Origin: Nemertoderma westbladi
Taxonomy: Eukaryota > Animalia > Xenacoelomorpha
Direction: 5' to 3'
NCBI GenBank assembly: GCA_032718475.1
Contig: JAUCBJ010002368.1
Coordinates: 1-49,093, forward strand
DNA: 49,093 nucleotides
A model generated the notes under the pieces. It did not search any database. It was not told the DNA's origin and worked only from the letters and a program-made list of their open reading frames with translations. Each line of letters starts with the position of its first letter. Positions within the stretch are counted from its first letter, which is position 1. The position numbers and the translations under genes were made by a program. Below are positions 1 through 49,093 of this stretch, in pieces.

Positions 1-49
1 GAGGAGAAGGTTAGAGGGGCTTAGCCCTAATAGTGAAGGAGCCCAGCGC

Positions 50-3000
50 GTGTTGGATGCAATTGATGTGGCTAGGTTAGCGGCGAATCAAGCTAAATTC
101 GATGAACAACTCCGCATCGCTAGAGACCAAGAAGAAAGGGTGAAGAAAAAACGTATAGAAGATAGAAAGACAGCAGCAGCGGCAGTGGCAGCGGCAGAAG
201 CGGAAAGAAAGGTGGCAGCAGCAGAAGCGGAAAGAAAGGCGGCCGAAGCGGAAAGAAAAATAGCAGTGGCAGAAGCAGAACGGAGGGCATCTGAAGAGAC
301 AACCCAACTAGAGTTGGAAAATCTTCAAGAGAGACAAGACAACGTTAATAAACAGTTAACAGCTAGTAATATGCAGATGATGAATAGATCTACTCCCAAA
401 AGACAGGGTTATACATCATCTGAGGAAGGCGATACCACCGACACTGAAGGCAAAGGAAATAGATCTCACCTAAGCCGACGTAAAAGAACATTCCACCGTC
501 AGAAATTGCCTGATTTGCCTCCAGCTGTTAGAAGGCAACTAAATAACACCAACTTAGGTAGTACAGAACCCACAGACCAAATAATTACAATAGAGATACT
601 CCCTACTATAGTAGATGAGCCTGAAATAGTTAGGCCTGTTCCCGAAGCCACCTTTTCGGTCGTAGAGACACCTGTACTCCCTGAACCTACCTCTCAATTC
701 CCGTTGCACAGCACTAAGCTACCTGTGCCCAGCAGAACAGTCCGTGAGACAGTTCATGCCCTGGACTCCGAGCGAAATATTCATGATTTGTCGCCCGTTG
801 TCCCTCGTCCGCCCGCTACAACGTTGGCGGATCCCGTTTCGGCGGTTGATTGGGTGGACGAGAGACGGCGGGGGATGGACATTCTCCTCGAAAAGATGGA
901 GGAGAATCGAGAACGCTCCTCCCAACAGGTCCGAGAGTTAGAAGGAACTGTTCAACAGTTAAAGGGAACCGTAAAGGAAAGTAGGTTAGAGTTGCAAGAA
1001 GTACAGCAAAATATCGCGCTAGAACGTGATAAATTAGTAAATTTACAAAAGGGTATACCGCCACCCCTTGTAACAATGTGTCAACCTGTTAGGTCTGAAG
1101 TATCTCATGCGCAAGGTGTGGAGCCTACACGCATCTATACTGCTAGCGAAGTAGAAACTCCTATAGTGAACCCTATTAAGGGTAATTATAGACCTGTTGA
1201 TAATGATATTCCCTATAGACCGGATCATAATCCGAGAAATTTATATACCGATAACTCGATATTAAATAACACGATGGCCCAAGAAAGTTTTACGCGTCAA
1301 ATGGCTAGAACCGAAGCCCGGCAAGCGGTAAAGGTGGGAGAGATCGTCAAGTTCAATGGAGATGAGATGAAATGGTTACCTTTTAATGAATATTATAAAG
1401 ATAACATACAGAACTCTGTGCTATCTAATGGAGAGAAACTTAGATTCCTCATCGAGTGCTTGGAAGGATCTCCCAAGTTAATGGCGTTAAAGTTTATTGG
1501 ACATCCTGACGGATTAAGACAAGTTTGGGATACACTAAACATCAGGTATGGTAATAGGAATAACATAGCTGGTTATTTGTATGCAAAGTTGGTAGCGCCC
1601 CGAAAGTTTATTAGCAGCGGAATTATAGAGTTTTCCGATGAGATTCAGGAGATCTGCAGACAATTAGATTGGCTAGGTAAGTCTCATGAGTATCAGAATA
1701 CTATGGTTATTAGAGCAGTGGCTTCTACTTTACCGAAGGGTGGAGTAGGTACACGCTGGGATAAGAAAGTGTTATATATGATGGAACAACAACGACGAGA
1801 CCCTACCATGGCTGATCTCATGTCATTCCTAGATGGAGAAGTGAAATTACAGCTCCTGAAACTGTCCAGAGAGAAGACACCGGAAAACAAGGTAAGTGAA
1901 AAACCCGTCTCTAGGAGAAAGGTAACACCAGTGTGTTATACAGATGATGGCGAAAGCCAGACTTCTCAAGGAGAAGATAGCGGGAAAGACACTGACAAAT
2001 CTTATAACGTAAATAAAATGCCTAAAGATCAGGTAAGTAAATTCAAGTCTCGAACAAATGACAGGAGAGAACAGGTAAGAAAAACTCCTCCTACGTCTCC
2101 CAAGAGAATTCAGGTGAGAAAGCCCGAAGAAAGGACAAGTGTACACAATGTTACTCAGAGTAAGGTAAGTAACATCAAACCGAAATGTGCGCTATGTGAT
2201 GGGACCCATCGCTTAAATATGTGTGATGAATTTCTAAAGAAATCATTAACTGAGAGACGTGAAGTCATGTGGGACAAGCGGTTGTGCTATAATTGCCTCA
2301 GACAAGGACACCAACGGCGAACCTGTTACTCTGACACAAGATGTGCTAAGTGCGGTGCGAAACATCATATCTTGTTGCACACTGAATTCGAGAGAAATAG
2401 TCCGAGTCAGGTAAGTGATTCCGAACTACATGTCCAATTCAGTGATGTGAACGACACTGATCAATCAGAGATGGAAGGATTCTATACGGACGAGTTCTCC
2501 GACGAAAACGAATCCTGTTACATGATAAATACCACAGTGTATCGAGCACTCATCTATGAAAAAGATACAGACATTGACCTCGCTCTAACCACTTCTGATC
2601 GACAACCATTTTGGAAAGCGCCAACTTCCAATGTAGGGATTAGAGAATTTCCTGTGGTACAGGTAAGGGTCCACGGACCGAAAAGGAGTTATGTAGTGAA
2701 CGCCCTCCTTGACTCCGGTAGTACAGGAACATTCATCGACAAAGAGCTAGCCGAAGACATATTTGATGGACAACCCAAGTTCCGAACTAAGCTAAACATG
2801 TCAGGAATTATGCAAGTTTGGAAATCCACAGTAACAGCGGATTATTATGTAGGTGCGTTGTCCACCCCCCAGGACGAACTAGGAGAACATAGCATAAGGT
2901 CAGTGAAAATGGTGGCTATAAAGAACTTCGCTACTACTCAAGCAGACCTTTATAATTGGGACGAGGATGAGAGCATCCAACATCTTAAGATACCTCGATT

Positions 3001-6000
3001 CCAGACAGATTATCCTGGAGTGCAAATACTCATCGGTCAAAATGCGCATGAAGCGCTCGAGACATTAGAGAAACGACCTGCTCAACCGCAACCTCTACAA
3101 GTTTATGCGGGAAGAACTAGAGTAGGTTGGTACTTTACTGGCCCTTCCCGTAGAACTCTAATGGAAAGATTACCTAAAGAGCAGGTATATCAAGCGCGAG
3201 AATGGGAAGTTGAGAACAGTGAGTTCGACGATCCAACTGAGGGAACTCCATACTCCTCAGACAACGATGATATACATCAACTCTTTGATGAGGAGAATGC
3301 CATCGATCTCCTTAAGGAAAGCGAGACTTGGCAAAATCAAGTGAACTTATGTCAACTCCTTCACCCATCTGAGCGAGACGACTATAACGACGAGCTTAAT
3401 GACGTCATTGAACGTTATAATGCCAAGACTCGGGATGAACATGCCGTGAGATTCTTTACTCAAGAGGTCGTAGAGCCCAACTCCTACGATAAGGCCCTAT
3501 CGGTGGAGGAAGAAAGAGCCAAGCAGATCCAAGCGACAACTACTCGTTTTCTTAAAGATCAAGGTAGGTATGAGATCGGACTTCCTTTCCGAAAGCGAGA
3601 ACCAAAGTTTATTAACAACAGACCTTTGGCGGAGAAAAGAATTGCTCAACTACATCGACGCCTTACGGCAAATTCTTCAGCTAAAGAAATGTATAAAACA
3701 CAGTTGAAGAAGTTCATTAGCAAGGGATATGCGGAGCTAGTACCGGAAGAAACCCCTATAACTGAGAGAACGTATTATTTAACTCACCATTACGTTCCCA
3801 AACCCGGTAAACCCCATGAAGTACGAGTGGTGTTTGACGGTTCCGCCCTTTATTTGGGCCAATCTCTTAATTCTGAATTGTTACCCGGACCCAACTTACT
3901 TCAATCCTTGTTGGGAATACTTTTAAGACTAAGACAATATTCCATTGCTTTCGCCTCAGATATAGAAGGCATGTTCTTACAAGTCAAAGCGCTGGATAGG
4001 GATCGAGATAGCCTACGATTTTTGTGGTGGCCTGAAGGAGACCTCAATAAGAAACCTGTGGAATACTGGATGACCATCCAAGCTTTTGGGATAATCTCGA
4101 GCCCTTCAAACGCCTGTTCCGTGGTACGCACCACTGCGGATGACAACCGAGACGCCTTCTCTAAAGAAGTGATCGACAATATTAAACGAGACATCTACAT
4201 GGACGATAATCTGAAGTCCCTTCCATCAGTCGAAGAAGCCATTGAGGTCGCTAAAGGAACGGTAGAATGCTTAAAGAAAGGTGGATTTCGATTAACTAAA
4301 TTCACCAGCAACTCCCGTGAGTTTCTGGAGTCGATCCCGGTAGAAGATCGAGGAACAAAAGACCTAGATCTAATAAAGGATGATCTCCCAGAAACTAAGA
4401 CCCTTGGTTTGAAATGGGACACAGAAAGAGATATCCTGTTTTTCCAACTAAAACAGCGAGATAATCCAGTTCGGACTAAACGGATATGTTTAAGTAACCT
4501 GAGCACTTATTTCGATCCATTGGGATTTATTAGCCCAGTAATATTGATTGCTCGGAGTCTAGTACAACAAATGTGGCTTGAAAACCACTCATGGGACGAT
4601 CCACTTAAGGGAGAATTATTAAAGAAGTGGATGAAATGGGAAGATTCTCTACCAGCCATCGAAAACTTCATAATTTCCCGTTCATATTTTGGTCATGTTC
4701 TCCCTACGTATTCATATCAACTCCATGTGTTTGGAGACGCCAGCGATATGGGAATAGGTATAGTAGCCTACCTAAGGGTGGAAACTCCGGACGGAATTAA
4801 AGTCGCCTTGGTCACCTCTAAGGCATTAATAAACAACAAGTTGAAAGTTCCTCGAGCGGAGTTAAAAGCGGCTCTATACGCTACAGCCATCGGCCGGAAT
4901 GTAACAGAACAGATCGACTATCCCCTGGAGAAAACTGTCTATTGGACCGACGCTTTACTCGTGTTTGAGTACATAACCAATGAAGTCTGTCAGTTCAGCG
5001 TCTTCGTTACCAACAGAGTAGCTATTATACTCAGTCGCACGACGATGGATCAATGGAGACATTGCCCCGGAACGATTAATCCAGCGGACATCGCTTCCCG
5101 GGGAGCAACTCCACAAGAACTGGTAGATACTCCAGACTGGTTAGGTGGACCCGACTTCCTCTACAAAGAAGAAGAATAATGGCCTCCTCATCTTACTACA
5201 GCAGAAATTAGACAGGCCAAGGGAGCGGAGAAAGTCAAACCTAAAACTCAGGCGAGTAAATCGAAGTTATTCAAACCCACAGTAGATCTGTCTGTACTAC
5301 ATACTTCCGGAGACGACGCTTTGGATCAGAAACCCACAGACACAAATAAACTCGTTGTGGAAATCCGTGATAAGGATTGGAAATCTGGCATACCAGACAT
5401 CTCGCAAGGACTCTCACCTCTTCTGCAGAGAGCGATGCATCACTACAGTTCTTGGAATCGGCTTTGTAAGGCCGTTACATATTTAAAGAGATGTTTTCAC
5501 CATCACTACTCTGGGATGAAAACAAAGGGTGATACCGCTCCAATCACATCAGTGCAGGTCCATGTTATTAAAGATCTCCCCAAATATAAGGTACCCAACA
5601 AGTTTCTGAAGGAGAAGATCAGTTATCAGGAGCATGAAGAAACCAACAAACAGATGCTGAGACTCTTACAATGCGATGAAGATTCCGATAAGTATTTCCT
5701 GTTGTTGAGAAATCCACAGATGCGCTTAAGGGATCGTTTCTCTAGCACAATGATAGATGGGTTGATACGTGTTGGAGGAAGGTTAACAAATGCCCCATTA
5801 TCCTTTGATACTAAGTTCCCCATACTCATTAGAAATCTTGAAATACAAGTCAAGATGATTGTAGATGTTCACAGCAAACTTTATCATGCTGGCAGAGAAC
5901 GAGTTCTTAGCGAAATTCGAACTCGCTATTATTTTTATAAACCCCGTAGAGCTCTGAACCAAGTTCTTAGGAACTGTATACCCTGTAGGAAAGCATTCAG

Positions 6001-7081
6001 TAGGCCTTTAACACAGAGAGAGGCAGAATTACCTAGGGAACGAGTAAGCTTTTATGAACCACCCTTTACTAATACCGGTGTGGATTTATTTGGCCCTATT
6101 GAAGTATATCGTGCTAGGACTATAGTCAAGAGATGGTGTGTAATCTTTGTTTGTATGACTTGTAGAGCCATCCATCTCGATATGGTGAACGATTTATCTA
6201 CCAACAGCTTTCTATTAAGCTTACGACGACAGATCGCTCGCTTTGGCACTAGCAACACGATGAGATCTGATAAGGGAACAAACTTCATTGGTGCCAACAA
6301 TGAAATCAAAGCTTACGTCAAAGATTGGAACCAAAGACAGGTGGACGACCAACTACGAGTAACAGCGTCTAGTTGGACCTTCAACGCCGCCGACGCCCCT
6401 TGGTGGGGAGGAAGTTGGGAGAGATTAATAAGAAGCGTGAAGACAGCATTTCATTTTATAGTGCCTTGCCGCGCTTATCTCACCGACGAACTTTTGCGGA
6501 CGTTAATGGAAGAAATCGCCGCCTATCTCAACGAGAGACCGCTTATGCCAGTCTCATCGAGTCCCGATTCCCTGGAAGCGCTAACACCCGCGCACTTCCT
6601 ACTAAAGAAACCTGTAGCCATGCTCCCACAATCGGAAATCACAGACGGAGACGAATACTGCCGACAAACTTGGCAACTCATGCAGTTGTTATCCCGTCGT
6701 TTCGCTGACCATTTCGAAAAACATTATCTGCCCACGCTACAACTTCGAACTAAGTGGTTTGCGCAGCAAGAAAACGTCAGCGCTGGAGACATGGTGCTTA
6801 TTGTGGATGTGGATCTTCCACGTAAGCGGTGGCAGACAGGTCGTATCATCGAGACACACATCTCGGATGACGGTTTGGTGCGATCGGTAGAACTCGTCAT
6901 CATGCGACGTAACTTCAAGAAACCGGGAATTGTCTTCGAGACGCAGCAGCTCAATCGCCCGGTGGGACGTTTATGTTTACTGGAAAGAGACAGAGAACTC
7001 TCCGGAAACTATGGGAGACAAGATACTCTTCCCACGACCACCTCCCTAATCCAACAAACATCTAGGGACTCCCCAACTTAA
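50..7081 (+). pseudogene. BEL/Pao gag-pol polyprotein, N-terminus cut by the window edge, with one in-frame TAA at 5177-5179 upstream of integrase
   Basis: Three Gag Zn knuckles (CALCDGTHRLNMC, CYNCLRQGHQRRTC, CAKCGAKHHILLH), protease LLDSGS, RT YMDD, RNase H HVFGDAS..NPADIASRG, integrase HSKLYH..CIPC, GVDLFGP, SDKGTNF, GGSWERLI. ORFs 50-5179 and 5321-7081 share a frame; copy 2 has GAA at the same codon (48471-48473). Confidence 0.93.
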
Positions 7082-7635
7082 CAACGGCTGGAGTGGGTGT
7101 GTGACCATATTACTTTGTATTTGTATTAGTTTTATTTTTATATTTATGTATGTATTATTATGTAATTTTATTTTAATCGTTTTATTTAATTTTATTTAGT
7201 AGTATGGTATTTTAGAGATTATTTAGTAGATTAGTGCAATATATATGCGCGTTTATTATTTAATTACGTATATTATATATTTAGTGCGACGGCGAGAAAT
7301 AATTCTTTTTCTCTTTCCTTACTGCCCGTATTATATTATAAATACGTGACTACAGTAAGATGAAATATCCGTACTTATTAAAGTACAATAAAGCCACTAC
7401 TATATTTAAGTATTATTGGTAGGCAGAGTATTAGGAATGCAAAGTTCAGATCCTCGTGTCTCGGCTAAACCAAGCTCTGGGTAGACCTTGGAAACGACTT
7501 GCCTCTTCACACTGACATTGCTTCGTGCGATATTGCTCTCATACCGTATATTAAATAATACATATAGTAGCGTGATGTCCCTTTAACAGTAGCGTATAAC
7601 GCAAAATAAATCTGTTAAACCCTTTGACCATCTGT

Positions 7636-7910
7636 AATTCTAGTCGATTAAGATATCGCGGCACCCACCGATATACTTGAAAGACAAATTTCTAGAATCA
7701 ATGGTTAACGTCCCCAGACAAGTTCTGGAATAAACTGGTGCCCATCCTAAATATTAATTATTAATATTTACAAAAATCTGTCAAATATCAGATCCTTTAA
7801 AATTCTAGTCGATTAAGATATCGTAGCATTTACCGATACTCTTAAAAGACAAATTTCATAGAATTAAGGATCCTATGTCCCCAGACCTGCTCTGGAATCA
7901 AATTGTGTCA
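7636..7910. repeat. Two diverged direct copies (period 165 bp) of a hairpin-forming module in the pol-accessory spacer
   Basis: AATTCTAGTCGATTAAGATATCG at 7636 and 7801, each followed by CCGATA..AAAGACAAATTTC and GTCCCCAGAC..TCTGGAAT. Confidence 0.8.
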
Positions 7911-8724
7911 ATTTAACTATCAAATAATAAAATTTACGGGAATAAATTTAAATTCATATATTTAAATGAATTTAATAAATTGTCATTTTGTACAATTTAT
8001 AACATTCCCAAAATTCCATTAATTAATAGATCATGGGAGCGGAGATTCACTCTATTAAGTGTATTTGTGTGCGAGAATCTCCAATGTGTAGTCAATAGCC
8101 GATAAAATTCATAGAATCATGTATAAAGGGGATATTGACCATTAAAGAATTACTATTAAATAGCATCCCAGATCTGTATGCATGAGAATTACCCTAATTC
8201 TACCGCTAGCTTTCCATAATGTCACCATGGCAACAACCACGCTAGAATTAGAAGTGAGTTAAAAGAACAATAGAAAGCATGCCCCATTGAATAGCATAGG
8301 GAATAAATAGCGCACTGCTAGTATCCAAGGATACATAATAAATACAGTGACATTCTGGAAGGTACTGACTAACGGACAAATGGCCCGAATGTGTGCAGTT
8401 TGTTACAGTTGTGTTGAATTTGTGCGTTTGTAGGTGAATGTTACTACTAAGGTGTGTTTACAGTAGCAAGTCGCAATTGTGAAAGTAACCCTTACTCTCC
8501 AAGAAGAACCTGCAGTACATCTAAGCCTTTGGGACGGACAGTTAAGTGACTTGTGCCGGTTATCGTTGTCGTTGTGTAGCTACATCGTTGGCGAAAGCAC
8601 AGCGACGACGGTACATCGGCGCTGAGGATCTTACACTGTCCGGGGGCAAAAGAGGGGTAGGCAGCGACGCCCGCTAGCCTAATATATATAGACTCATTAT
8701 AATATTGATAAACTCATAGCAGAT

Positions 8725-9348
8725 ATGACTGAGTTGATAGAAGATGATCTTGGTATCAGGGAGAGATATACTCTACCTTTACAAGCGTTTGTCGATAGCT
8801 TGATACGCGGCGACGCTGGTACAACTACTACGGAGGATGATGGTCGTTATATCGAACCGCCGATGTCCCCGGAGCAACTTACGCGTGAATTGGACTATAG
8901 AAAGTTCACCGCTCGCTATACGCATCGCAATGGTACGTATATGGACTTCTTAACTACCGGCCACCCTATCGATTTACACGATACGGACGATGTGGATACC
9001 GAAAGGGAAATGGTTTTATTTAAATATCATACCCAACGGAATCGGAACGATAAGACAAGAATAGAACACGAGAACTCTATTCGAAACCGACTCGAAAGAG
9101 AAGACGTTGAAGAACCGGATAAACGTAACGACTTCAACGATTATCTGGAATTCTTGAGAGAAACATACCTCAATATTGCCAGTCAACAAAATCTCAAAAC
9201 TCGATATCCTCAAGGTATACATCATGACCCTATGATAGAACTCAAACGACTCTATTTCACTATGATGTATCTTACCGCCGATCGACCGCTACCTGTTGTC
9301 CCAGATAGCTTCAAACAGATGGAGGAATATTGTAAAACTGGAGAATGA
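8725..9348 (+). CDS. Accessory ORF of the BEL element, 207 aa, acidic/helical, function unknown
   Basis: ATG-initiated open frame between pol and the 3' LTR; the next ORF starts 24 nt after its stop; no recognisable motif. Confidence 0.6.
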   Translation: MTELIEDDLGIRERYTLPLQAFVDSLIRGDAGTTTTEDDGRYIEPPMSPEQLTRELDYRKFTARYTHRNGTYMDFLTTGHPIDLHDTDDVDTEREMVLFKYHTQRNRNDKTRIEHENSIRNRLEREDVEEPDKRNDFNDYLEFLRETYLNIASQQNLKTRYPQGIHHDPMIELKRLYFTMMYLTADRPLPVVPDSFKQMEEYCKTGE

Positions 9349-9372
9349 TCACCCGCGTTTCCTCTGCAGGAC

Positions 9373-12300
9373 ATGCGTCTTTGGTATTACTGTGACGAAT
9401 GCCCTAGACCCAATCAGCAAACGGAAAGACATAAACATCCGCGGAGACGTTGCGCTAAACACAGTTTTACACGATATACTTACGGGAGTTTCGAGCGAAA
9501 CCTGTTCGACGTGTCCCCTGCGGTCGCTCGACTCAAGCGATCCTTGAACAAACCGATGATCAGAGTTCCGGAATACTCGGTCAGACCTCCGCATTCCTCG
9601 GTTAGACCTCAAACTCTTGACCCTAATAGTATCACGGACCCTCCCGAACTGTACTCACTGTTCAAAGATCTAGTGTTACCCGAACAGTTGATCGGTGGCA
9701 CTCCGGTAGTAGTCTCACGAGACATTCGCCAACCCTACCTAGCTGGATTGGGACGTGGTCATCTAATATCGCCGTTTAACCCATACAACCGTCCCGGCTT
9801 CACCTCTATCCAACCCGTTACAGAAGTCGAAGAGAGCGTCGTACGAAACGCATTAGACGCTATTCGGCAGAAAATCGGAAAGGGAACGTACGATTGTTTG
9901 GAGAAGCGTAAATTGCAGCAACAAGTCCAAGCGGTGAAGGAATTAGCTTTACCCCAGTTCGATAGAGAAATACAAAATCTCGAGGAGGACATTGAACGTG
10001 GACGAACCTACTCTTTACAAGAGTTTCTAGATGAGCGTCTACAACAACAAGCGGAGGAGAATCAGCTCGAGGAGAGACATATAGAACTGGATGAGAGAGA
10101 AGAAGCGGCTTTAGCTCAACCAGAAGCGCAAATCCTTATGACGGATCTCTACTCTAAAACCATTCTTCATCCCTCGATGGTTCCCCATTTCGGAGACAAA
10201 CTTTTTGCGATGGCACAACCCCAACCGGTTGATATCAACCTAAGATCTCGCGATCTTATCGCCGACACTCCTCTGTTGCAGCGTCCGCCCATCGAACCCG
10301 CTCGTGTCGATGGTATACTCGTTGAACCTCCGGACAATAGAGCCGATCTTGTCCATCGCATGGTACACGATGTAAACATACGCGCTAGACCTTTACCGGA
10401 CTCGTTTTATGGGATCACCCTTATTACGTCAATCTAAAACAATATTACATGGTAAAACCGGAAGATCCTACACATAGTCTGAAGTTTCTACCGTTAATAA
10501 ATCCTCTCGATCTAGTCGAACTCGAACAACTGCAAAAACATCTGGATCAGTTAGTTAAAGTAAACTCGTTTCGAAAACCATATAACGTTTCCAGAATAGA
10601 GAAAGAAACAATACCTCCGTATAATCTTGATGGATTCATCAAAACTCGTTTAGTGCACTGGAATCTTGATGTGTTATTCGAGGAGGAAAGAATACAACGA
10701 TATGGAGATGTGGAAACATATACCACGCAATGTTTAAAGTATAAAGACCTGCCTAATGCTAGCGAATGTGCTACCTTGTGGCATCCTGTGGGAATGACAC
10801 TCGAAAACGCCACTAAAGAGTGGAACGAAACTCTTAACGTTATCGAGATGTATGGAGTTGTCACTTACGATAACGAAGGTAGCGTTCCGGTTGGAGAACT
10901 TGGAACTACGCGGATGATACACATACGAGGACTCGCTGGTTCTACCCACGTATTTACTCGAGCATGTTCCGACGTTATTGATTATTCTTTTGAAACTCTT
11001 ACTGAGACACAAAAGAAACTCCGACATGGACAATTTGAACTCGCGCAGCGTTACGTCACCGACACCGAGCGCAAGCCGGCCATGGGTATCGATGGATCGA
11101 TGTTACCCCAACCCGTGCTCGAGATGCTGTTTAACGAAGGAATCCTTAAAATCGGCTCAGCTGTTTATGGAGACCTACAGAACGACTTTCGGAATATGGA
11201 GAACATTCCATACCCCTTCGTTGATACTCAGCTGATTGCTCCTTGGGCAGAAGGCCGAGGTTTCTTCCCCACTACGTATGCGAATACACCCAGCGGAATT
11301 ACTAAAGTACAACGAACCTCCATCGGACATCTTGCCTTTCAAGAATACGGATAGAATTTCAAGGTTGGAAATCCTATAAATTACCAACAAGTATACGGAG
11401 ATCATTATTCTCGTTTATACTTTGATGGACCGTTGACCGCACCTGGCGCCGTGTATAGCTTTATGAGTGTTCCACTTCGTCCCTCCTTAGCTATATACAC
11501 GATTTTTGAAAAGGCAGCACTTGCCGGTTGGCTAGCCGATGTGTGCAGTCGTACCATACGCGCCCATCCCTTAATACTTGGAACCAAACTCGCCAAGTTA
11601 GATGAACACAATAAGTTCATCCGCTTTGAATGTTTCAGGCGCTTTCTGACTCCGTTCCGTAACGTTGATAGTCAGTTCAAGGACCGCGCTCTGACCAAAC
11701 TCAGCCTGAGAGACTCAGCGGCGGAGAAGCTAAACAGCGCGGGATTTGCCCTTTTTCAGGACGTTTGTATACAGAACTTGCACTCATCTGTTATACAAAG
11801 ACCCCGAATACCCACGGGTTATTCTGTCGTCGAAGTTCAGACAGTGGGTCTGCTTGCTGAGACAGCCGCACCTACCTCAGCTATGCAATTGGAAGACGAA
11901 CCAATATGCTTAGAAGCTGAAGCGATTCAGCCTACAGCGCCCCGGAGCAGCGATAACGACTACGTCTTAGAGTGGTATCAAGGTCCACAATGTCTCACCG
12001 CATACGATTATCGACACGCTAACTATGTTTCTCGAAAACGTTGTCGATTATGCGCATCGAGAGACCATTTCACTCCTATGGACTCAGACGTACCCTGTTC
12101 CTATTTCCATGAACAACCAATGATGGAGATATATTGTGCGTATTGCAGACTTAATAACTCTCATATTTTTGCAGTCTGCCCCCAATTTATGACTCAATGC
12201 CACCACTGTCAACTTAAAGGACATGCCAGTTATAATTGCCCCTTTAATCACGATTTAGAGAGCGTAGATGAAATGATTACCCTGCGCTACATTCGAGCTT

Positions 12301-12971
12301 GGGAAGCGAACGCGGATTTACATTGTGAGTCCCGTCATCGATACTACCCTGGACGCTCTTACGAGGGAGTTTACGCGTTCCATCCTTATTTATTAGCGTC
12401 TGTGGAACAAAAAACACGCGTACCGAGTTACGAGCTAATGAAGCGTGTTGGTGAGTGTATTTCCACTAAATTTGTTAGAAGATACCTTAGGAACGTCAAT
12501 CCTAACGATATTACTTCATACCATTTGATCAATTATATCCGTCAAGACCCTGAGTATGGCGACTTATTTATCAACTCGCACCCTGAGTTACAGGAAGTAT
12601 CTCGACGGCCCTAGGAATATCGAGCCCGAGAACGCGAGCTGGAAAGAACTATTAAACCAAGGAAGTTTCTTACCACCCACGGTCCGCCTACCGCCATTGC
12701 CCAGACAACCCGTCAAGGACCCGTAGGAGCTGCTGTCCTGAGGCGCGCCCTAAAGGCTGTTAGACCTCGCTCCACGGAAGTTGATATCGATCAACCAGGT
12801 ACCTCGACCGGCGGATACACCGATCGCAATCCGAAACCTTCTGATGCAATTGTATTGCACCCTTCACCCAGGAGTTACAGCCCTCCTAGTAAAGTGGCTC
12901 GCCCCAAAGAGAAAAGGACTCTTACTAGCCTCAAAAAACTCCGTAAACGCCGTCCACGTAAGAAAGACTAA
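9373..12971 (+). pseudogene. Accessory gene: Cys/His N-terminus and coiled coil, DEDDy 3'-5' exonuclease-like domain, three Zn knuckles, basic NLS-like tail (~1200 aa if reconstructed)
   Basis: 10449-11354, 11433-12614 and 12615-12971 are one frame broken by TAG at 11352 and 12612. 9373-10437 may join by a 1-nt shift near 10405. Motifs: VVTYDNEG, LPQPVLEMLFNEGILKIGSAVYGD, FVDTQ, CRLC..H, CAYC..H..C, CHHCQLKGH..C, and C-terminal KKLRKRRPRKKD. Confidence 0.7.
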
Positions 12972-13041
12972 CTGTTTAGAGTATTTTTATATTTTAGAAA
13001 CTGTGATTTGTTATATTTTATAGACTTAAATCCCATTTTCT

Positions 13042-13049
13042 GGGAGCGG
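13042..13049 (+). other. Polypurine tract of BEL copy 1
   Basis: GGGAGCGG directly before the TGT start of the LTR. Confidence 0.7.
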
Positions 13050-14247
13050 TGTAAAAGCTTTTGCGTCATTAACCGGTTATTTTCCCTTAAAGTACTCTGT
13101 GGTTGGTTTGCCAGGCATAAAAAGGCCGTGTCCTTGCTGTACTGGTGTTTTGGATGACATAAAAGTCATTTCTTCTGTATTTGTACTGTATTTGTACTTT
13201 AGAGGACATAATCCGCAATCTCGTGACGCGATAAGCTGGATACTCTTGAAAACCGTGTCGCTACCATGACGACGGTTAACAGCTGATATTGCCACGTCGA
13301 CGTTTCTTTGTTCTCTCGTTGTTCGGTTGACCAATCAGAGCGTTTTTTGTCTCTGTGTTGGAGGTGTATACAGAACTCAGTAGTTCAGTGTTATGTTTTT
13401 GCCCAGAGCCTAAGAACACCGGCTTTTGGCACCTCCGTGTTTCAGTCTTTAGTCTTACATTAGTAGGCTTAATTATAGAACGTATATCTGTTATCGAGTT
13501 ATATATCCATACTAACCAAACGATTCATACATACAAACCTTATCGAACTATATCAAACCATAACTAAACAATTTATACATTAATATTACTGCTTTTGCTG
13601 TCTGTTGTTCATTATATTTGTTGATGAAATATTATATCGGAATACTGATCAATAGTCAGACACCCCACCTTCATGATATACTAAAGGTTAGAGAGACCGG
13701 TTACAGATAAACGATTGCAACCTATGTTGAGTGGTTTGAAGTGAATCTAATGCTATTTCATATGCCCAACATAAATTGTCTGTTGCTCTCTTTATACGTG
13801 ACCAAATTTAGTGAAGGTCGGCAGATTAGTGTGCAGTATTGTGCAGCATTGTGTATGAGTGTAACTGATAACAAAGCATCTCCTAAAGAATGCGCCATAT
13901 ACGTAAATCTATAGCCTTTTCGTTGTGTCTAGTTTAAGTCACAACTCTGTTTACATATTTAGAGCGCCACGTCCTAAAGGAACTGTTAATATTTCCCGAA
14001 AGTGAATAATATTTGTCAGAGATTATATATTACGATCAGTCGAATAATACGGTAGGCTTACATCATCAATCATTAAGCTCCGAACTCAGTCTCCCGGGTA
14101 TATCCAACGGGTGAATGATTGCGCATAGACTGGCTTCGGCTAATGTAGTGTATCAAATACTCGTCATAGGCTAAAGACTATCTATCATCCAAAAGACATT
14201 CTAATTTTGGCAGGTTAAACTGTCAAAGGTCTTTAAAAGCGCAAACA
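13050..14247 (+). repeat. 3' LTR of BEL copy 1 (1198 bp, TGT...ACA)
   Basis: Shares the first 14 nt and the last ~850 nt with 38779-39976; similarity ends at AAAGCGC(A/G)AACA in both. Confidence 0.85.
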
Positions 14248-14900: not shown

Positions 14901-15016
14901 GATAATTAGTAAATACTGGAAAATTTATTTCGAGTTATTATCATATTCGAGTTAGTGAAATATTGAAACGAGGGACCGAAGTGAGATAAAAGTACATTAT
15001 ACACTATAATATGTTG

Positions 15017-29595: not shown

Positions 29596-29673
29596 CCTGC
29601 CCTTCCCACACAAATAAAATAAAATAAAAATAATAGTACATAGTAGGTACGCAGTTAGTAGTTAGTAGGTACA

Positions 29674-30515: not shown

Positions 30516-33019
30516 ATGGCGAGCAAGTTGATCAGGAAGAGAAAGGCGGAGTCAGGAGGAAAGGAGATACTGGTGGATTTCACTGAGAGGCATCCGGAAG
30601 AGAAGACGAGAGGATACTACGAGAAGTTGGAAAGGGGTCACGCGGCACGAGCGCTGCAGGATCACTTCCGGGAGATGCACGAACAGCGGCTGGTCGGGAC
30701 CTACGGGACGCCGTCGCTGGACAACGCGATCTTCCAACACTTCCACTACGTGGTGAAAGGGGACGAGGCGAAGTTCGGGATTCCGAAGTATCCGAGGGAA
30801 TCACCGAGGAAGGACTGGAAGAGATTCATAGAGTCCGTCAACAGGGGAGGATATATGATCCTAGACGACGAGGGAACCGTGGAAGACGAGGCGGGTTCGA
30901 GATGAGGATCAGCGGGGTCGGCCAGGACCATACTCCTACATTTGGCCGCGCCAAAAGGGGACATCTTCCTATTCGATCTAGGAACGTATGGGAAGAAGGA
31001 CGGGCCGAAACTAAACCGGTTACCGAAAGCGGTACAAGTCTTGGTAAGAGAGAAGTCGACGACGAAAGTGGGATCGGCGATTCGCAAGGATGCGGAGAGA
31101 ATCATCGGTCCGGACGCCACCAACCTCCTGGATATGCAGAAGGTCTTTATGGCTATGACGGCACCGGATGGGTTGGGGCTAGTCGAAAACACGGGCTCGT
31201 ATGCCACAAACCGATGGACTGGGGGAAGTTCAGGGAAGAATACGGAGCAGAACTAGCGAACTCGCTAAAGTGGGGAGCGAGACCGGGAAAGCAGGAGGTA
31301 TATCAATTCCGCAGAGGAGCGATAAAGGTATATCAGAAGCGATATATCCTGCAGGAAGATTGGGTGATAATAAGTTTGCTTAACTTATTTATGACCGTGG
31401 TCATCGAGAGGGAACCAGAAGCATTTCTGTTATCGGGATCACCCCTAAGCTACAGGAGAGCCTTTAAAACGGCCTTCGACGGTCTGGTAGACCACCCGGG
31501 GCTGAAGGGCGAGTCGGTGTACTACAACAGCCGACATCTAGTAGACGGGGAGACAGATACGCCGTATCAGAGATGGGAGCAGTTAGAGACGGACAGACGG
31601 GAAGCAAAGCGACTGGAAGAAGTCGCTAGACAGGAGAGGATAGAAGCGGAGGAGAGGGAAGAGGAGGCCAGGACGCAGAGTTACGGCTTCGAGGAACAGG
31701 CGGGCCTAGACGAGCTTCATTGGACTTCGTCAGGGAGTTCGGGGGAGTCTCTGGGGCGAGAATTGGGATGGACGGTGGGATCGCCGAAACAGTCGACGTC
31801 GGGGTTGCAAGAGATGCCCATACCAGCGGGCGCCGAGGGCGACCAACCGCCGAGGAACTTGAGGGAGCTAGAGGGATGGAGAGCTACGGGCGAGAGCCAA
31901 GGCGGGAAGGGACATAGTGGGTCCACCAGGATACCGGGGTTGGAGGTACTGCCAGAGGAGGAGGAGGACGACGACGAGTTTGGAGAGATGCCGCCCATCG
32001 AGAGGATAGGCCACTCGGACACGGACTGGGTTGGCGGAAGGGTGGTGACGGCCAGTGGGGCGAGGGCCTTCTGGAACAGATCCGGCAAGCGGACCTGGGT
32101 GCATGAGGAGCCGGCGATGGATTTCGCGGGGAGCACTATCAGGTTGGGCGAGCAACCGGGGACGGCACCACGGATAGTATTCGGGGAGACGATGCCCGAG
32201 AGGGGCGGAGAGATCGATGTAGATAGAGACAGCAACGTGGAGAAGTTCGCCTACCAGCGACTCCATAGACCGCGGAGATCGCTCGGGACGAAAGACGAGG
32301 TGGGACGGGAGACATTGGTACTCGGCTGCGACTACTGTGGGAGACAGACCCACCAGGAAAGGAGCTGCTTGTACCGGTTCCAGAAGGGAACCTTTTGTCT
32401 CTACTGCCGCGAGCCGAGCCACAGGATGGGGGCGTGTCCACGGTTACATAACCGATGTCCAAAGTGCCACTTTCGGGGACACTACGGACGCCAGTGCGAC
32501 TGGATGGACGACGAGGAGAAGTTCGCAAGATTCGAGGAGTGGGCCGACGTCGGGGCTATGACGCGCCAGCGCATGAAGGAGTTCAAGTGGGGTTTCTTCC
32601 TTATAAACCAGGAGACTCACATGGAAATCATAAAGCGGAGGTTACCGTTCACCTATCAAGAGATAGCAACGGCGGCGTCGTACGCCAGAGTTATGAACAC
32701 ACAACGATACTTGGACAGGTGGACGCCGCAGAACCGAAAGGAGTTTAGGGATTTCTTGGCGGAGCACGTACCGCAAGCGATGAAGATGATCCTATGGGAC
32801 GCCACCAGAGGGAGACAACCAGGCCACTCTGAGGGGCCACCTGCGAAGCGGTATCGGGCACTAATAACACCAGCGCCCAAGGAGCCAACAACCGGAATCA
32901 GCAGGGAGGTGGCGGCGAAGGTCCGAAAGCAGAAAGCGGATTCCAGAGGAGCAGTGGTAACCAAGAAACGGCCCAGGGAAGAGGACGCCAGGGGGAACTA
33001 CCCCCGGGGGAACAGATAG
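30516..33019 (+). pseudogene. Accessory gene: DEDDy 3'-5' exonuclease-like domain, acidic linker, three Zn knuckles, basic tail (~830 aa if reconstructed)
   Basis: 30507-30905 and 30942-31256 are one frame broken by TGA at 30903; a shift near 31200 enters the 30902-33019 frame. Motifs: YMILDDEG, LLHLAAPKGDIFLFDL, LPKAVQVLV..TKVGSAIRKD, LLDMQ, CDYC..H..C, CLYC..H..C, CPKCHFRGH..C. Confidence 0.72.
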
Positions 33020-38778: not shown

Positions 38779-39976
38779 TGTAAAAGCTTTTGTGGGATAA
38801 CTGATTCGTTTGCCTTGTTGGCCAGTTCCCCCCCTGGGCGCTGAATACTCTAAAAGGGGATCTATAACTCGAATAGCGCAAGCTACCGGCTGATTGGCTG
38901 ATTTGCTGTGCGAAGGAATCTGGGCTACGTTTGATTGTCCAACCAGCTTGGGAAAGTTGCCCCACAGCCCTGTTTCTATATCTGCCAATAGGATTTGAGT
39001 TGATTTTGATTTCGACCTATCACAGATCTACTGAACTGAATTTTCCTATCTGTATGCTCTTTCTCTGTGGTGGGTGGAAGCCTTTGTAAATAAGGTTATT
39101 CTTATCAGTTTTTAGTGTTTTTTGTGATTCTAAGCCAGGAAGAGAGCGGCTTTGGAATTTTATGCTCTTTCTCTGTGCCTTACACTAGTAGGCTTAATTA
39201 TAAGGGCATATATCCGTTATCAAACGAACAATCCAAAACTGATTGATTGTCACAACTCATGCAACTCAACATACCTAATCAAACATACCTGTGCATACTT
39301 TTATATTGTTATACTGCTATTTACTGTCAGTTCTTCATAATATGGTTGATGAATTATTATATTTGGAATAACGATAAATAACCCCGAAACCCAATATTCT
39401 TGATATACCGAAGGTAAGAGAGAAGGGTTACATATAACGATTGTGACTTATGTTAAAGTGGTTTGAAGTGAATCTAATGTTATTTGATAGACCCTACATG
39501 AGTCAGTCCGTGTTCCTTTTATATGTGGCTAAAATCAGTGAAGATCGGCAGATCAGTGTGCAGTATTGTGCAGCATTGTGTATGAGTGAGTCTGATAACG
39601 AAGCATTTCCTAAAGAATGCGCCATATATGTGAATTATAACTAAGCCATATCGTTGTGAGTAGTTTAAGTCATAACTCTGTTTATATAGATAGAGCGCCA
39701 CGTCCTAAAGGAACTGTTAATATTTCCCGAAGGTGAATAATATTGTCAGAGATTATATAATACTGTCAGTCGAATAATACATTAAGCTTACATAGCAATA
39801 AGATTAAGCCGTCGAACCCAATCTCCCGGGTATATCCAGCGGGTGAATGATCGCGCACAGATTGGTTTCGACTAGTGTAGTGAATAAAATACTTGTCATA
39901 GGCTAAAAGTGATTTATTATCTAGAAGACATCATAATTTGGCGGGTTAAACTGCCAAAGGTCTGAAAGCGCGAACA
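38779..39976 (+). repeat. 5' LTR of BEL copy 2 (1198 bp)
   Basis: TGTAAAAGCTTTTG...AAAGCGCGAACA, homologous to 13050-14247. Confidence 0.85.
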
Positions 39977-40125
39977 ATAACGGATATTTAGTCTGTATTG
40001 CAGTGTAGGCATTAAATACAGTTTAATATTGTTCTGGTAAGAACAATAACGGATATTTAGTCTGTATTGCAGTGTAGGCATTAAATACAGTTTAATATTG
40101 TTCTGGTAAGAACAATAACGGATAT
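39972..40125. repeat. 69-bp tandem duplication (2.2 copies) overlapping the LTR end
   Basis: GAACAATAACGGATAT at 39972, 40041 and 40110. Confidence 0.9.
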
Positions 40126-41665
40126 AGCTTCTTTATTGCAGTAAGCAATAAAGTTGAAAGTACCGGTCAACCGGTAAACCTGAACGGTACATCTGTAGGT
40201 CAGTAGGCCCAACTGCCAGAACCGGTACTTCTGTACGTCCGTAGGCCCAACTGTCCGAACCGGTACTTACAGTACAGGTACAGCAGTATTATTCGATTTG
40301 ATTATTATATGCCGGTAGGTCTTAATAATTAATCGGGAACGCCTGGTTTTTATTGGGATTTTACTTAGGCCTATTTCTGTTAGTTTTATTTATTTGTAGG
40401 CCAGTATTGAACAGAAGGCGTGTAAGCCTGATCAGTTTGTACAGATAATTTGTAGGTTGAGCTGTTGTCTGATTGCTGTTAAGTCTGAACGGATTGCAGT
40501 GTATGTAGATCACCTGTCCGATAAAGAACGGTTAGGAAGTAGGGGCAGCCAATGCTGTAAGGTAAACCCCCAACTAAAGAATAAGTCGTACTACTGGGTT
40601 AGAACGCATACTACCTAATCATTTCGGAGTCTGCATGTCCTGTAGTTTATTTAGGCTTGAGAGTAGTCTGTCAGTGTTTGGTCTGCATTTTGTTTGAGTG
40701 GTTTGTACGCGTAGCGTAATATTTATTATTCAGAGTTTATGCGATTATTCGCAACATTCATTCCCCAAGTTTGTTCCTACAATAATTGTGTTTGTTATAC
40801 ATACCGCTATAGTTAAATTAACCCCGGTACTACACGGGCTGCTTGGCGTAGGTAAAGACTGGTGATTTTGTGCACCGGTCACTCCAGCAGATGTCGTGGT
40901 TCTTTTAGCTGTTCAAGTATATTTAACTACTGATTATATGTTGTACAAGTACTCGTACCTAATTTAGGGTTTAGTGTACAGTGCTTTCCGAAAGTAATTA
41001 GTGTGGACATTATATTTGTGTTGTAAAGTGGTTGATAGGCACGTTCGATTAGCTCTATTAACTTCTAGGTAGGAACACTCCGTGATACATAACGTAGTAC
41101 CTATAGCGATACGGCTATAGGTCGTCAGGCGGTGGTATTTTCCTATCTGGACAACGCAGTGTATTTACTACTACTTATTATTTTCAAATACCGCAGTACC
41201 CTGTCCGTTGTAATAACCAGTTTCTAACCCTTTGTTAGGCTGGTTTGTAGACTTCTTGTAAAATTACCCTGAAAATTCGTATTTTGTGTTTTTGTAAATT
41301 TTTGTGTTTATTTAGAGATTGTAATCTCACCCGAATTGTACGTAATTTGTAGTATTAAGTAACTTAGGTAAATTAGCATTATTTGTTTTAGTGTCCTATA
41401 AGTAACACTTCACTGAAAGCGCACCGCTTTGGGTAGTGATTACTCCCCAGAAATAATAACATTTATTTCAAACATTGACAAAACCCATTAAAACGGGTAT
41501 ATATATATTATAAATCAACTCAAACGATTTATAAATAGTAGGCCTGCCATACAACAATTAGGTCTCCATATCAGTTGGACTACTGCTCAAATAACGGTAA
41601 TAAAGTAAGTAAAGTAACCAAGTAACCCTTAAAATTCAGAAATTCAGTTATTTAAAATAATTGAT

Positions 41666-42030
41666 ATACCGGTATTTACAATAGGCTTATTATATTTATT
41701 TCTATAAATTTTAGGTTGAAATCATACCGGTATTCTGTAATTAATTCTAGTTTGTAATTATACTTATATATATACACTATAAGTGTAAACTGCATACCGG
41801 TATTTACGATAGGCCTATTATCTTTATTGCTATAAATTTAGGCTGAAATTATACCGGTACTTGTAATTAATTCTAGTCCAGAATTATATATACTACAAAC
41901 TGTAAGCTGTATACCGGTATTCCGATAGGCCTATTATATCTTTATATATTTGTGCTAAAATTATACCGGTATTCTGTGATAAACCTAGTCTGTAATAATA
42001 GTTATATATACTATAAGCATACCGGTATTC
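41666..42030. repeat. About three degenerate ~120-bp units with recurring ATACCGGTA(T) palindromes in the BEL leader
   Basis: ATACCGGTA occurs seven times at ~55-65 bp spacing. Confidence 0.75.
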
Positions 42031-42163
42031 TAATATATTATATATATCACGCTGCACTGAGTAGCAGTACCGGTAATTAATTACTAGGCTAGCAGTTAAT
42101 ACTGAGTTACTAGACTTGCTCAGACTGTGATACAGCAGTAGACATTCAACTGTACGCATAAGC

Positions 42164-45100
42164 ATGTCTGATACTAAGCAGAACCTGTCAGACAGTTTAT
42201 TAGATGTAACTATCTGCGACTCAGATAAAGGTGTAGAACCATCTACACCTAAGTTCAGTTCACCTCCCACTGTGAGGAAGGTCATCCCTCCTGTAGTAAT
42301 AAAAGAACCTAGGCTGGTCCAACATCGTAGGTCTATCATAGGCACTCGAGCTCAGGTCAAGCGGGACCAAGAAGCAGCGGAACAGCAACAACACGCGAGC
42401 CAAGAACTTACTTCTCAACGGCCCAACAGCTCCAGTAGTGAGGATACTGTAGAACTGACACCAGAACGCGGAGCAAAGATGAGGGATGCGGTTTATTCGG
42501 ATCCCCTTCTCATCCTTCCTGCAGCCGTACTCACAAGGTTATTGATTGCAGTGGAAGAACACCAGATCGATTGGGCGAGAAGTCAACGATCAACTAAAGA
42601 TAATTATGCGGGATACACGAGTGAAGAACTGAAGTCTATTGTCGAGTCGCAATGGAACTTCCCCGGACCCGGACTCCCGTTTGATTTATCAGAAGCTGCC
42701 TGGGAAGACATACACCGGATGGGAGTAGCCAAGGAAACCATCGATCCAGCTGTGTGGAAGAGGTCCGCAGCCGGATACGCACAGGGATTCTTCAGCTCCA
42801 TGGAGCGAGTGAAAGAACAACTGTTCCAACAACCTCAAGGACCTCAAGAGCAGGGACAACTGCTTTATCAAGTTAGAGAAAGAATTCTGCGAATCAGGCT
42901 AATATTATCAGCCTTTGAAGAGGCTTCTAAAAGAAGACAAGACACGTCGTTGCAAGTTGCCGTAAAGACTTGGTTTCAACGGGTGAGTCGCCAGGTTCAA
43001 GGAACAGCTCAGTGGAAAGCTCAGCTGGAGGAGCGCTCAACCCATGGAGAATCAACAGACGCTACTTTTTCCCAAGTGGAAAGTGAAGCGACGGCAGAGA
43101 AACCACATAAGAGGGATGCCATTGACATCTATCTGTCAGACTATCAACGTTTTTTAGGTGATGACGAGTTGAGGAGAAGGTTAGAGGGACTTAGCCCTAA
43201 TAGTGAAGGAACCAAGCTTGTGTTGGATGCCATCGATGTGGAAATGAGGGCTGCGAATCAGGCTAAATTTGATGAACAACTCCGCCTGACACGAGTCCAA
43301 GAAGAACAAGTAAAGAAAAAACGTATAGAAGACAGAAAGAAAGCAGCAGTAGCAGCTGCCGAAGCGGAAAGGAAAGCAGCCGAAGAGGAAAGTAAAGCAG
43401 CCGAGATGGAAAGAAAAGCGGCAGCGACAGCAGCAGAAGCAAAGGCGGCAGCGGCAGAGGCAGAAGCGAAAAGTAAAGCAGCCGAGATGGAAAGAAAAGC
43501 GGCAGCGACAGCAGCAGAAGCACAGGCGGCAGCGGCAGAGGCAGAAGCGAAAAGAAAAGCAGCTGAAATGAAAAGAAAAGCGGAAATGGCAGTAGCAGAA
43601 GCAGAACGTAGAGCGGCGGAAGAAATCACCCAATTAGAATTGGAAAACATTCAGGAGAATCAAGACTGCATAAATAAACAGTTAACAGCTAGTAATATGC
43701 AGATGATGAATCGATCTACTCCCAAAAGACAGGGATATACATCATCTGAAGAAGGCGATACCACCGATACTGAAGGCAAAGGAAATAGATCTCGTCTAAG
43801 CAGACGTAAAAGAACATTCCACCGTCAGAAATTGCCTGAATTGCCTCCAGCTGTTAGAAGGCAACTAAATAACACCAACTTAGGTAGTACAGAGCCCACA
43901 GACCAAATAATTAAAATAGAAAGACTCCCTACTATAGTAGATGAGCCTGAAATAATTAGGCCTGTTCTTGAAATCACCCCTTCGGTGATAGACACACCTG
44001 TGCTCCCTGAAACTACCTCTAAATTCCCTCTGCATAGCACTAAGCTACCTGTGCCCCGTAGAACTGCCCAGGAGACAGTTCAGGTCCTGGACCCCGAGCG
44101 AAATATTCATGATTTGTCGCCCGTTGTCCCTCGTCCGCCCGCTACAACGTTGGCGACTCCCGCTTCGGCGGTCGAATGGGTGGATGAGAGACGGCGGGGG
44201 ATGGATCTCCTGCTCGGGCAGATGCAGGAGACTGTCCAGCAATTCAAGGGCACAGTAAGGGAAAGTAGACTAGAGTTGCAAGAAGTGCAGCAAAGTATCG
44301 CGCTAGAACGCGATAAATTAGTAAATACTCAAAGGGGTATACCACCACCCTCGGTAACAATGTGTCAAGTACTGTCAACCTGTTAGGTCTGAAGTATCTC
44401 ATGCGCAAGGTGTGGAGCCTACACGCATATATACTGCTAGCGAAGTAGAAACTCCTATAGTGAACCCTATTAAGGGTAATTATAGACCTGTTGATAATGA
44501 CATTCCCTATAGACCTGATCATAATCCGAGAAATTTATATACCGATAACTCGATATTAAATAACACGATGGCCCAAGAAAGTTTTACGCGTCAAATGGCT
44601 AGAACCGAAGCCCGGCAAGCGGTGAAAGTGGGAGAGATCGTCAAGTTCAATGGAGATGAGATGAAATGGTTACCTTTTAATGAATATTACAAAGATAACA
44701 TACAGAACTCTGTACTATCTAATGGAGAGAAACTTAGATTCCTCATCGAGTGCTTGGAAGGATCTCCCAAGTTAATGGCGTTAAAGTTTATTGGACATCC
44801 AGACGGATTAAGACAAGTTTGGGATACACTAAACATCAGGTATGGTAATAGGAATAACATCGCTGGGTATTTGTATGCAAAGTTGGTAGCGCCCCGAAAG
44901 TTTATTAGCAGCGGAATTATCGAGTTTTCCGATGAGATTCAGGAGATCTGTAGACAATTAGATTGGCTAGGTAAGTCTCAGGAGTATCAGAATGCTATGG
45001 TTATTAGAGCAGTGGCTTCTACTCTACCGAAGGGTGGAGTAGGTACACGCTGGGATAAGAAAGTGTTATATATGATGGAACAACAACGACGAGACCCTAC

Positions 45101-48100: not shown

Positions 48101-49093
48101 CTTGGTTACTTCTAAGGCATTAATCAACAACAAGTTGAAAGTTCCTCGAGCGGAGTTAAAAGCGGCTCTATACGCTACAGCCATCGGCCGGAATGTAACA
48201 GAACAGATTGACTATCCATTAGAGAAAACTGTCTATTGGACCGACGCTTTACTCGTGTTAGAGTATATAACCAATGAAGTCTGTCAGTTCAGCGTCTTCG
48301 TTACCAACAGAGTAGCCATCATACTTAGTCGCACGACGATGGATCAGTGGAGACATTGCCCCGGAACGATTAATCCAGCAGACATCGCTTCCAGGGGAGC
48401 GACTCCAAAGGAATTGGTAAATACTCCCGAATGGTTAGGAGGACCCGACTTTCTCTACAGAGAAGAAGAAGAATGGCCTCCCCATCTCACAACAGCAGAG
48501 ATCAGACAGGCCAAGGGAGCGGAGAAAGTTAAACCCAAAACTCGAGCGAGTAAATCGAAGTTGTTTAAACCTGCAGTTGATCTATCTGTATTATTTACTT
48601 CCGGAGATGATGCTTTGGATCAGAAACCCACCGCCACGACTAAAGAAGTCTTGGAAATCCGTGACAAGGATTGGAAATCTGGAATACCAGATATCGCGCA
48701 AGGACTCTCACCTCTCCTGCAGAGAGCGATACGTCACTACAGTTCCTGGAATCGGCTCTGTAAAGCTGTCACCTATTTAAAACGATGTTTTCATCATCGT
48801 TACTCCGGGACAAAGACCAATAGTGATGATGCTCCATCAACATCTGCACGAGTCCATGTTGTTAAAGATCTTCCTAAATACAAGATATCCGACAGGTTTC
48901 TAAAGGAGAAGATCAGTTACCAGGAGCATGATGAAACCAACAAACAGATGCTGAGACTCCTACAATGCTATGAGGATTCCGATAAGTATTTCCTGTTATT
49001 AAGAAATCCACAGATGCGCTTAAGGGATCGCTTCTCTAGTACCATGATAGATGGGTTAATACGTGTTGGAGGTAGGCTGACCAACGCCCCATT
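42164..49093 (+). pseudogene. BEL gag-pol of copy 2, frameshifted by a 10-bp insertion at 44369-44378; appears open from there to the window end
   Basis: ATG at 42164. Copy 1 reads ATGTGTCAACCTG where copy 2 reads ATGTGTCAAGTACTGTCAACCTG. Same Gag, PR, RT and RH motifs. Confidence 0.92.

Follow-up and report, generated by a model that had tools for sequence, protein, structure and literature searches.

Retrotransposons with long terminal repeats (LTRs) in the BEL/Pao group (Belpaoviridae) mostly encode gag-pol only or carry an env gene (PMC8742986). Their extra open reading frames (ORFs) are described as env-like, F-like in roo or chuvirus gB-like (PMC3118150, PMC13524379; here, as with most of the sources below, our statements follow the available part of the text). 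A different kind of third ORF was reported from bdelloid rotifers, in which Juno1/2, Vesta2/5 and Athena/Terminon elements carry a DEDDy gene with a DEED motif and a proposed role in 3'-end processing or silencing (Rodriguez, Kenefick and Arkhipova 2017, PMC5408684). DEDDy domains are also found in Dada DNA transposons (PMC3706591) and are counted by reviews among the known accessory domains (PMC6338049, PMC6431247). Among cellular proteins, the RNase D of Trypanosoma brucei (TbRND) owes its RNA binding and most of its rate to CCHC fingers (PMC7797062). In this study, we analysed 49,093 nucleotides of Nemertoderma westbladi DNA (GCA_032718475.1, contig JAUCBJ010002368.1, positions 1-49,093 of the forward strand; this whole stretch is the window). 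We describe ORF3, a gene in the env slot of a BEL/Pao element, the middle of which is very probably a DEDDy exonuclease-type domain with a core bearing the mark of purifying selection.

ORF3 starts at the ATG at 8725 and ends at 12971 (about 1,414 codons), between pol, which ends at 7081, and the polypurine tract (PPT) and LTR. An earlier note on this DNA let the gene begin at 9373; the start is corrected to 8725, which shares its frame with the ORF at 9349-10437 when the stop at 9346 is read through. Three stops, at 9346, 11352 and 12612, and a single break of the frame in the zone 10389-10437 interrupt this copy. All motifs of the series given in the earlier note lie where it placed them, namely VVTYDNE (D10869, E10875), LPQPV (11103), ILKIGS (11142), D11172, VDTQ (11220) and YTIFE (11496-11510). 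The knuckles are spaced C-x2-C-x4-H-x9-C (12042-12098), C-x2-C-x5-H-x4-C (12135-12179) and C-x2-C-x4-H-x4-C (12198-12239), and a further module, termed WAD, follows them. The basic tail may act as a nuclear localisation signal. No Pfam family was matched by the N-terminal 570 or so codons; a Cys/His cluster on the forward strand at 9391-9462 (C-x2-C ... H ... C-x2-H) is a possible zinc finger. The lack of a transmembrane (TM) anchor was borne out in both halves of ORF3, the best 19-residue hydropathy being 1.06 and 1.17, and neither a signal peptide, nor fusogen homology, nor a Pfam match was detected. The description as an LTR retrotransposon with a non-env gene in the env slot holds, with BEL/Pao pol upstream and PPT and LTR downstream.

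Compared with the env-like third ORFs of BEL/Pao elements, a predominance that the earlier note had asserted and with which the available text of PMC3118150 and PMC13524379 agrees, ORF3 occupies the same slot between pol and PPT but lacks a signal peptide, a TM anchor and any similarity to fusogens. It resembles the rotifer ORF3, as described in the available part of that study, in being a DEDDy gene in the env slot without a TM segment, shared across unrelated retroelements and altered in its tetrad. It differs in its carrier (BEL/Pao here, dUTPase-bearing, gypsy-like lineages in rotifers, compared by description only), in having D-E-D-E instead of DEED, three CCHC-type knuckles, the WAD module and an N-terminal part of about 570 residues, and in the clear purifying selection seen here between copies. 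The idea put forward in the earlier note is accordingly not new, as bdelloid DEDDy ORF3s were published in 2017 along with the same functional guesses (PMC5408684). The concept of ORF3 was anticipated by the rotifer work; new are its carrier, nuclease type and architecture. Neither a nuclease ORF3 in BEL/Pao nor a knuckle-WAD architecture was found in the literature searched, outside which lay Repbase and subscription journals. The exonuclease domain (EXO) of Drosophila Egalitarian and EXD1 (PDB 9uju, 9rvy), RNA-binding DEDDy domains and best PDB match here, belong to cellular genes that, in the available descriptions, have no zinc knuckles, Egalitarian using ED and XAD modules and BicD instead; relative to Egalitarian, about 25 residues are inserted behind ExoI in ORF3, and the loop that precedes ExoIII is longer. 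TbRND likewise joins a DEDD nuclease to a C-terminal CCHC array, and its entries 7c42 and 7c45 appeared weakly in the PDB search with the family profile. It is, however, a mitochondrial guide-RNA trimmer with four fingers near the nuclease, whereas the knuckles of ORF3 lie about 170 residues off. The shared architecture is likely convergent, and by analogy TbRND may serve as the nearest working model for the mechanism of ORF3.

ORF3 belongs to a family. Among 1.84 billion representatives, phmmer found three proteins at E<=0.001 (P0005, P0006, P0007), all of which have a nuclease-like half, a low-complexity linker, Cys/His knuckles and the WAD module in this order. A second version, gene 2, lies in the window itself and was recovered by tblastn with P0005 (E 3.5e-4 for the exonuclease, 1.6e-15 for the knuckles). 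Its motifs are ILDDE (30858), KVGSAIRKD (31065) and YILQE (31343), with knuckles at 32327-32500, and it is about 20% identical to ORF3. Pairwise identity of the nuclease halves among members is 13-30%. P0005 shows a weak match to DNA_pol_A_exo1 (E 0.2) and Atlas neighbours of the same family, its first Atlas match being a Euglenozoa cluster of exonuclease plus zf-CCHC (0.86). In P0006 the Glu of ExoI is gone and the knuckle-WAD module occurs twice. In the PDB, the knuckles of the family profile matched HIV-1 nucleocapsid (NC; E 7e-5), Lin28 and Air2. Word-index protein searches returned nothing, or P0005 only; locus scans gave no locus in two scans of viral_contigs and none and one (L139) in metagenome_contigs. 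Next to gene 2, on the opposite strand, lies a gypsy integrase region that is truncated. The locus of gene 2 differs from that of ORF3 in base composition, and neither an LTR pair nor a pol of its own was found for gene 2 in the window. Gene 2 is placed on the G-rich strand, and its flanks comprise a 69-bp tandem repeat (29641-30013) and DNA rich in G runs. We infer that P0005-P0007 are transposon-borne, against which it counts that no pol was seen on the 3,685-nt contig of P0006 (L139), the only relative's contig inspected. On that contig P0006 spans 79-2025 with its decayed nuclease site, and 1.3 kb further on begins an acidic ORF ended by the contig edge.

Four comparisons, each of them fairly weak, agree in placing the middle of ORF3 among DEDDy proteins, as the earlier note had assigned it. 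In NCBIfam the only two matches were RNase D models, both at the ExoII region (E 0.022 and 0.054). In the ESM Atlas, DNA_pol_A_exo1 was named in 21 of the 30 matches of the nuclease domain (score 0.92). HHalign of a four-row N-half alignment with two sets of aligned bacterial PF01612 domains (5 and 17 domains) gave scores of 39.0 and 40.9 (probability 82 and 86), and none of 100 column shuffles scored above 19.7. When 177,635 PDB sequences were searched with a profile (A6) built from the domain in the window, from P0005 and P0007 and from both halves of gene 2, the top match was to the exonuclease domain of Drosophila Egalitarian and extended from ExoI to ExoIII (E 7.3e-4). Egalitarian also ranks first among DEDDy chains with profile A4 (E 0.1), and from the best PDB profile match the domain may belong to an EXD1/Egalitarian-like subfamily. 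PHROGs gave nothing better than an E of at least 0.06. An origin from an Rrp6-type protein was considered and is disfavoured, since neither HRDC nor Rrp6 was matched in the Pfam and PDB searches. Other results weigh against the assignment. The window protein alone had no Pfam exonuclease match and no PDB match, and at the PF01612 cut-off of 23.6 bits P0005 reached 11.9 while the window protein went unmatched. The Egalitarian match weakened to E 0.1 with A4 (EXD2 0.81) and was not listed with A2, and the features shared in the Atlas matches (142-150) were below the 170 typical of same-family matches. AlphaFold models reached a pLDDT (predicted local distance difference test) of 31.0 from the single sequence and 33.3 from seven rows, and Foldseek found no match for the second. 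Of the check by HHpred or AlphaFold with Foldseek that the earlier note had suggested, homology to DEDDy profiles was thus obtained, a match to the RNase H-like fold was not.

The active site can be read with some detail. The D-x-E of ExoI (D10869, E10875) and D11172 of ExoII align with the RNase D/PolA motifs, while at ExoIII the P-L-x6-Y of the window protein fits two registers. Local alignment joins the window and gene 2 without gaps at YTIFE, and ungapped scores for YTIFE against its rival are 19 vs -1 for P0005, -6 vs -14 for gene 2 and 10 vs 11 for P0007. Because of the local alignment and the scores on P0005 and gene 2, YTIFE is the preferred, though not proven, register, and the earlier reading of it as the ExoIII motif remains the best supported. 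The rival register, PLTAPGAVYSFMS, was chosen by global MAFFT; it ends in Ser and is less favoured. The profile score of the C-half, 20.6, exceeded all 100 shuffles for one reference set, but not for the other. D-x-E, the ExoII Asp and Y-x3-[DE] are kept in four of five members, P0006 having lost them; among the four intact sites the tetrad is D-E-D-E in three (window, P0005, gene 2) and D-E-D-D in P0007. The suggestion that an atypical ExoIII makes this a binding-only domain is not borne out, as Y-x3-E recurs among relatives and the acidic residue is retained. A D-E-D-E site of this kind keeps catalysis possible. Against a working nuclease stand the ending of ExoIII in Glu instead of Asp in the window, the rival register, which leaves no acidic residue and ties on P0007, and the example of Egalitarian. 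According to the available text, that protein retains all five catalytic residues, yet these are dispensable (10.1101/2025.08.03.668247; PMC13186709), and by this analogy conserved catalytic residues would be no proof of cutting.

Further copies of the element allowed selection to be assessed. Five of the seven listed runs contain the stretch or part of it, and contigs of other copies, diverged by up to about 20% in pieces, cover 30 of the 30 bins of 6500-14500 in all four runs, although no single contig spans this interval. The ORF3 region is therefore present in other family members. In the core (11130-11530), the best-supported 40 of 82 differences minus the stop-codon row left 39, which are not independent events. 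They comprise 33 silent and 6 replacement changes where 26-30% silent are expected (pN/pS 0.06-0.08, binomial p<1e-11), and D11172, Y11496 and E11508 are unchanged in the differences listed. These counts, the non-neutral outcome that the earlier note had asked about, indicate that the nuclease core is under purifying selection comparable to that on gag-pol of the two copies in the window. Counting only the best 40 of 82 rows, with differences that are not independent, weakens this conclusion. In the N-terminal part, 5 silent and 7 replacement changes among 12 listed are not significant. The stop at 11352 occurs in this copy only, and length differences were seen at 10389-10437 in contigs from other copies; this copy thus has the look of a decayed rather than a recoded gene. 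With profile scores of 39-41 against at most 19.7 in shuffles and 33:6 silent to replacement changes, both the nuclease assignment and its conservation appear to go beyond chance. Contig joints 9093-11891 and 10086-12836 mark deletions of about 2.7-2.8 kb that remove the nuclease, possibly in non-autonomous derivatives.

As to its role, we tentatively read ORF3 as an accessory BEL/Pao gene kept by selection, the product of which would trim or shield RNA 3' ends in trans and so blunt host silencing; that counter-silencing is its job is, taken by itself, held with equal or slightly greater reserve. ORF3 would be made as a separate protein, probably spliced or internally promoted, and its basic tail would allow nuclear entry. 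As in trypanosome RNase D, the knuckles may grip single-stranded RNA and feed it to the nuclease; the D-E-D-E residues of ORF3 would bind metal and might cut. The substrate would be small-RNA guides of the host or transcripts of the element that have been marked, and their 3' ends, trimmed or shielded in trans, would leave silencing of the element blunted. An accessory function in trans is supported by the module at the unrelated-looking locus of gene 2 and by the existence of nuclease-deleted contigs. In rotifers, however, no clear link of the DEDDy ORF3 with copy number or small-RNA escape is reported in the available part of the study (PMC5408684), which speaks against such a role. The anti-silencing, decoy and proofreading roles suggested in the earlier note are all conjectural. 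More doubtful still is a bolder form of this proposal, an undescribed mobile module of Egalitarian/EXD1-like nuclease, triple knuckle and WAD passed between unrelated invertebrate retroelements as a silencing suppressor that mimics a host piRNA or RNA-transport factor.

ORF3 may instead help replication: within the particle, its nuclease would trim 3' ends, untemplated or mismatched, on RNA or cDNA of the element or on the tRNA primer, and its knuckles would serve as a second NC-like chaperone for a genome of unusual length. The knuckles do match retroviral NC best, the element, inferred at about 18.8 kb, exceeds the 4.2-10 kb of the family, and, in the available text, 3'-end processing was proposed by Rodriguez et al. 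(PMC5408684) and processing of cleaved ends for the DEDDy domains of Dada transposons (PMC3706591). We nevertheless think this unlikely: ORF3 is separate and unfused to pol, its protein of about 1,400 residues has a long unrelated N-terminal part, and the module is common to a different locus (gene 2). Most BEL/Pao elements lack an ORF3 and the module occurs in two very different loci, which makes a host-facing role somewhat likelier than a core replication step. Equally improbable in our view is a non-catalytic adaptor after the manner of Egalitarian, which would bind structured element RNA on the surface of its nuclease fold and localise the ribonucleoprotein, for example toward the germ line, or protect it, its acidic residues being vestigial or structural. 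Egalitarian is the best structural-family match and, as far as the available text goes, makes no use of its catalytic residues in binding stem-loop signals, among them the one of the I factor retrotransposon (10.1101/2025.08.03.668247; PMC13186709); the doubled knuckle-WAD and decayed site of P0006 and the change from Asp to Glu in ExoIII would fit as well. Four acidic residues and the Tyr are, however, kept across members only 13-30% identical, and no Egalitarian ED/XAD or dynein-light-chain region was recognised, no Pfam or PDB match lying outside EXO. A recently captured host gene fragment carried as a neutral passenger, or a separate insertion in this one copy, to which the stops and frame break, the 5 vs 7 changes of the N-terminal part and the lack of a spanning contig might point, is very improbable and largely refuted by the complete coverage in diverged copies, the silent excess, the private stop at 11352 and the failure to find a close cellular relative among the 1.84 billion representatives.

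The carrier of ORF3 is identified as BEL/Pao by the domains of its pol. Pfam detected DUF1759 (E 5.8e-11), Asp_protease_2 and Peptidase_A17 (E 2.6e-36), with Integrase_H2C2 (E 1.7e-7) and DUF5641 (E 4.2e-20) in the 3' part; RVT_1 itself was not matched in gag-pol. YMDD lies near 4200, and the Pao-type order of protease, reverse transcriptase (RT), RNase H and integrase is kept. The spacer between pol and ORF3 belongs to the family, since contigs from other copies extend over it in all four runs. The 3' LTR equals the LTR at 38779-39976 in length and ends (79% identity), and LTR length and PPT fit the norms for Belpaoviridae (LTR 0.2-1.2 kb, PPT about 10 nt, tRNA-Arg/Gly primer-binding site, genome 4.2-10 kb; PMC8742986, ICTV profile). 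With the 5' part of the sister copy added (offset 43,294), the full element would measure about 18.8 kb, beyond this typical range. ORF3 was not seen directly between two LTRs, as its own 5' LTR lies beyond the window and the sister ends before its ORF3. Over 4,600 nt, gag-pol of the sister shows 91% identity to that of the first copy, with 68, 48 and 297 mismatches by codon position.

The sister copy (38779-49093, forward strand) has about 2.2 kb from LTR to gag, a short tandem duplication directly after the LTR and a gag with a very long N-terminus of Ala/Glu/Lys repeats. Two tandem arrays adjoin each other directly upstream of its LTR, at 35096-38811, one of about 26 units of 85 bp and the other of about 23 units of 55 bp. 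On the reverse strand, 15752-20213 and 20422-23988 hold a GC-rich gypsy gag-pol (PNMA-like gag, pol frame of 1,041 codons) and a two-ORF long interspersed nuclear element (LINE) with endonuclease and RT; the LINE adjoins the 5' side of the gypsy element and lies between two copies of a 57-bp repeat (20082, 24539). Inverted arms of 54 bp, 482 bp apart, resemble a miniature inverted-repeat transposable element at 26871-27460, and a 63-bp near-palindrome is found at 15010-15146.

Table 1. Features of the BEL/Pao element with ORF3, of gene 2 and of the sister copy (window positions)
Feature	Position	Strand	Remarks
BEL/Pao gag-pol	2..7081	+	one stop near 5177; 5' end beyond window
AT-rich non-coding spacer, pol to ORF3	7082..8724	+	GC 0.32 at 7001-8000
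ORF3 N-terminal part, about 570 codons	8725..10437	+	stop 9346; acidic helical stretch
Frame-break zone	10389..10437	+	overlap of ORFs 9349-10437 and 10389-11354
DEDDy 3'-5' exonuclease-like domain	10857..11540	+	D10869/E10875/D11172/E11508, Y11496; stop 11352 inside
Three Cys/His zinc knuckles	12042..12239	+	
WAD module after knuckles	12280..12440	+	E-x-W/F/H-A-D...R-x-R...W/Y-x-G-F/V-F/Y; aligned in P0005, P0006, P0007, gene 2
Basic tail (12933-12968) and stop	12933..12971	+	
Purine run (PPT), 8 nt	13042..13049	+	abuts LTR
3' LTR, 1,198 bp, TGT..ACA	13050..14247	+	one contig joint leads back to 13050
Gene 2: exonuclease, three knuckles, WAD	30516..33019	+	one stop, one frame break
Sister copy of the BEL/Pao element, with 5' LTR, gag and an incomplete pol	38779..49093	+	ended by window edge ahead of its ORF3

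To our knowledge, few transposon-encoded proteins of animals that counter small-RNA silencing are known. For LINE helicases such an activity is a hypothesis, as presented in the available text of PMC6338049. ORF3 extends nuclease third ORFs from the gypsy-like elements of rotifers to BEL/Pao. It moreover delineates a family that can be recognised and that includes naturally intact members, and selection on the nuclease domain could be demonstrated here, which was not possible in the rotifer study. The presence of two very distant versions 20 kb apart suggests that the module is common in the genome of N. westbladi.

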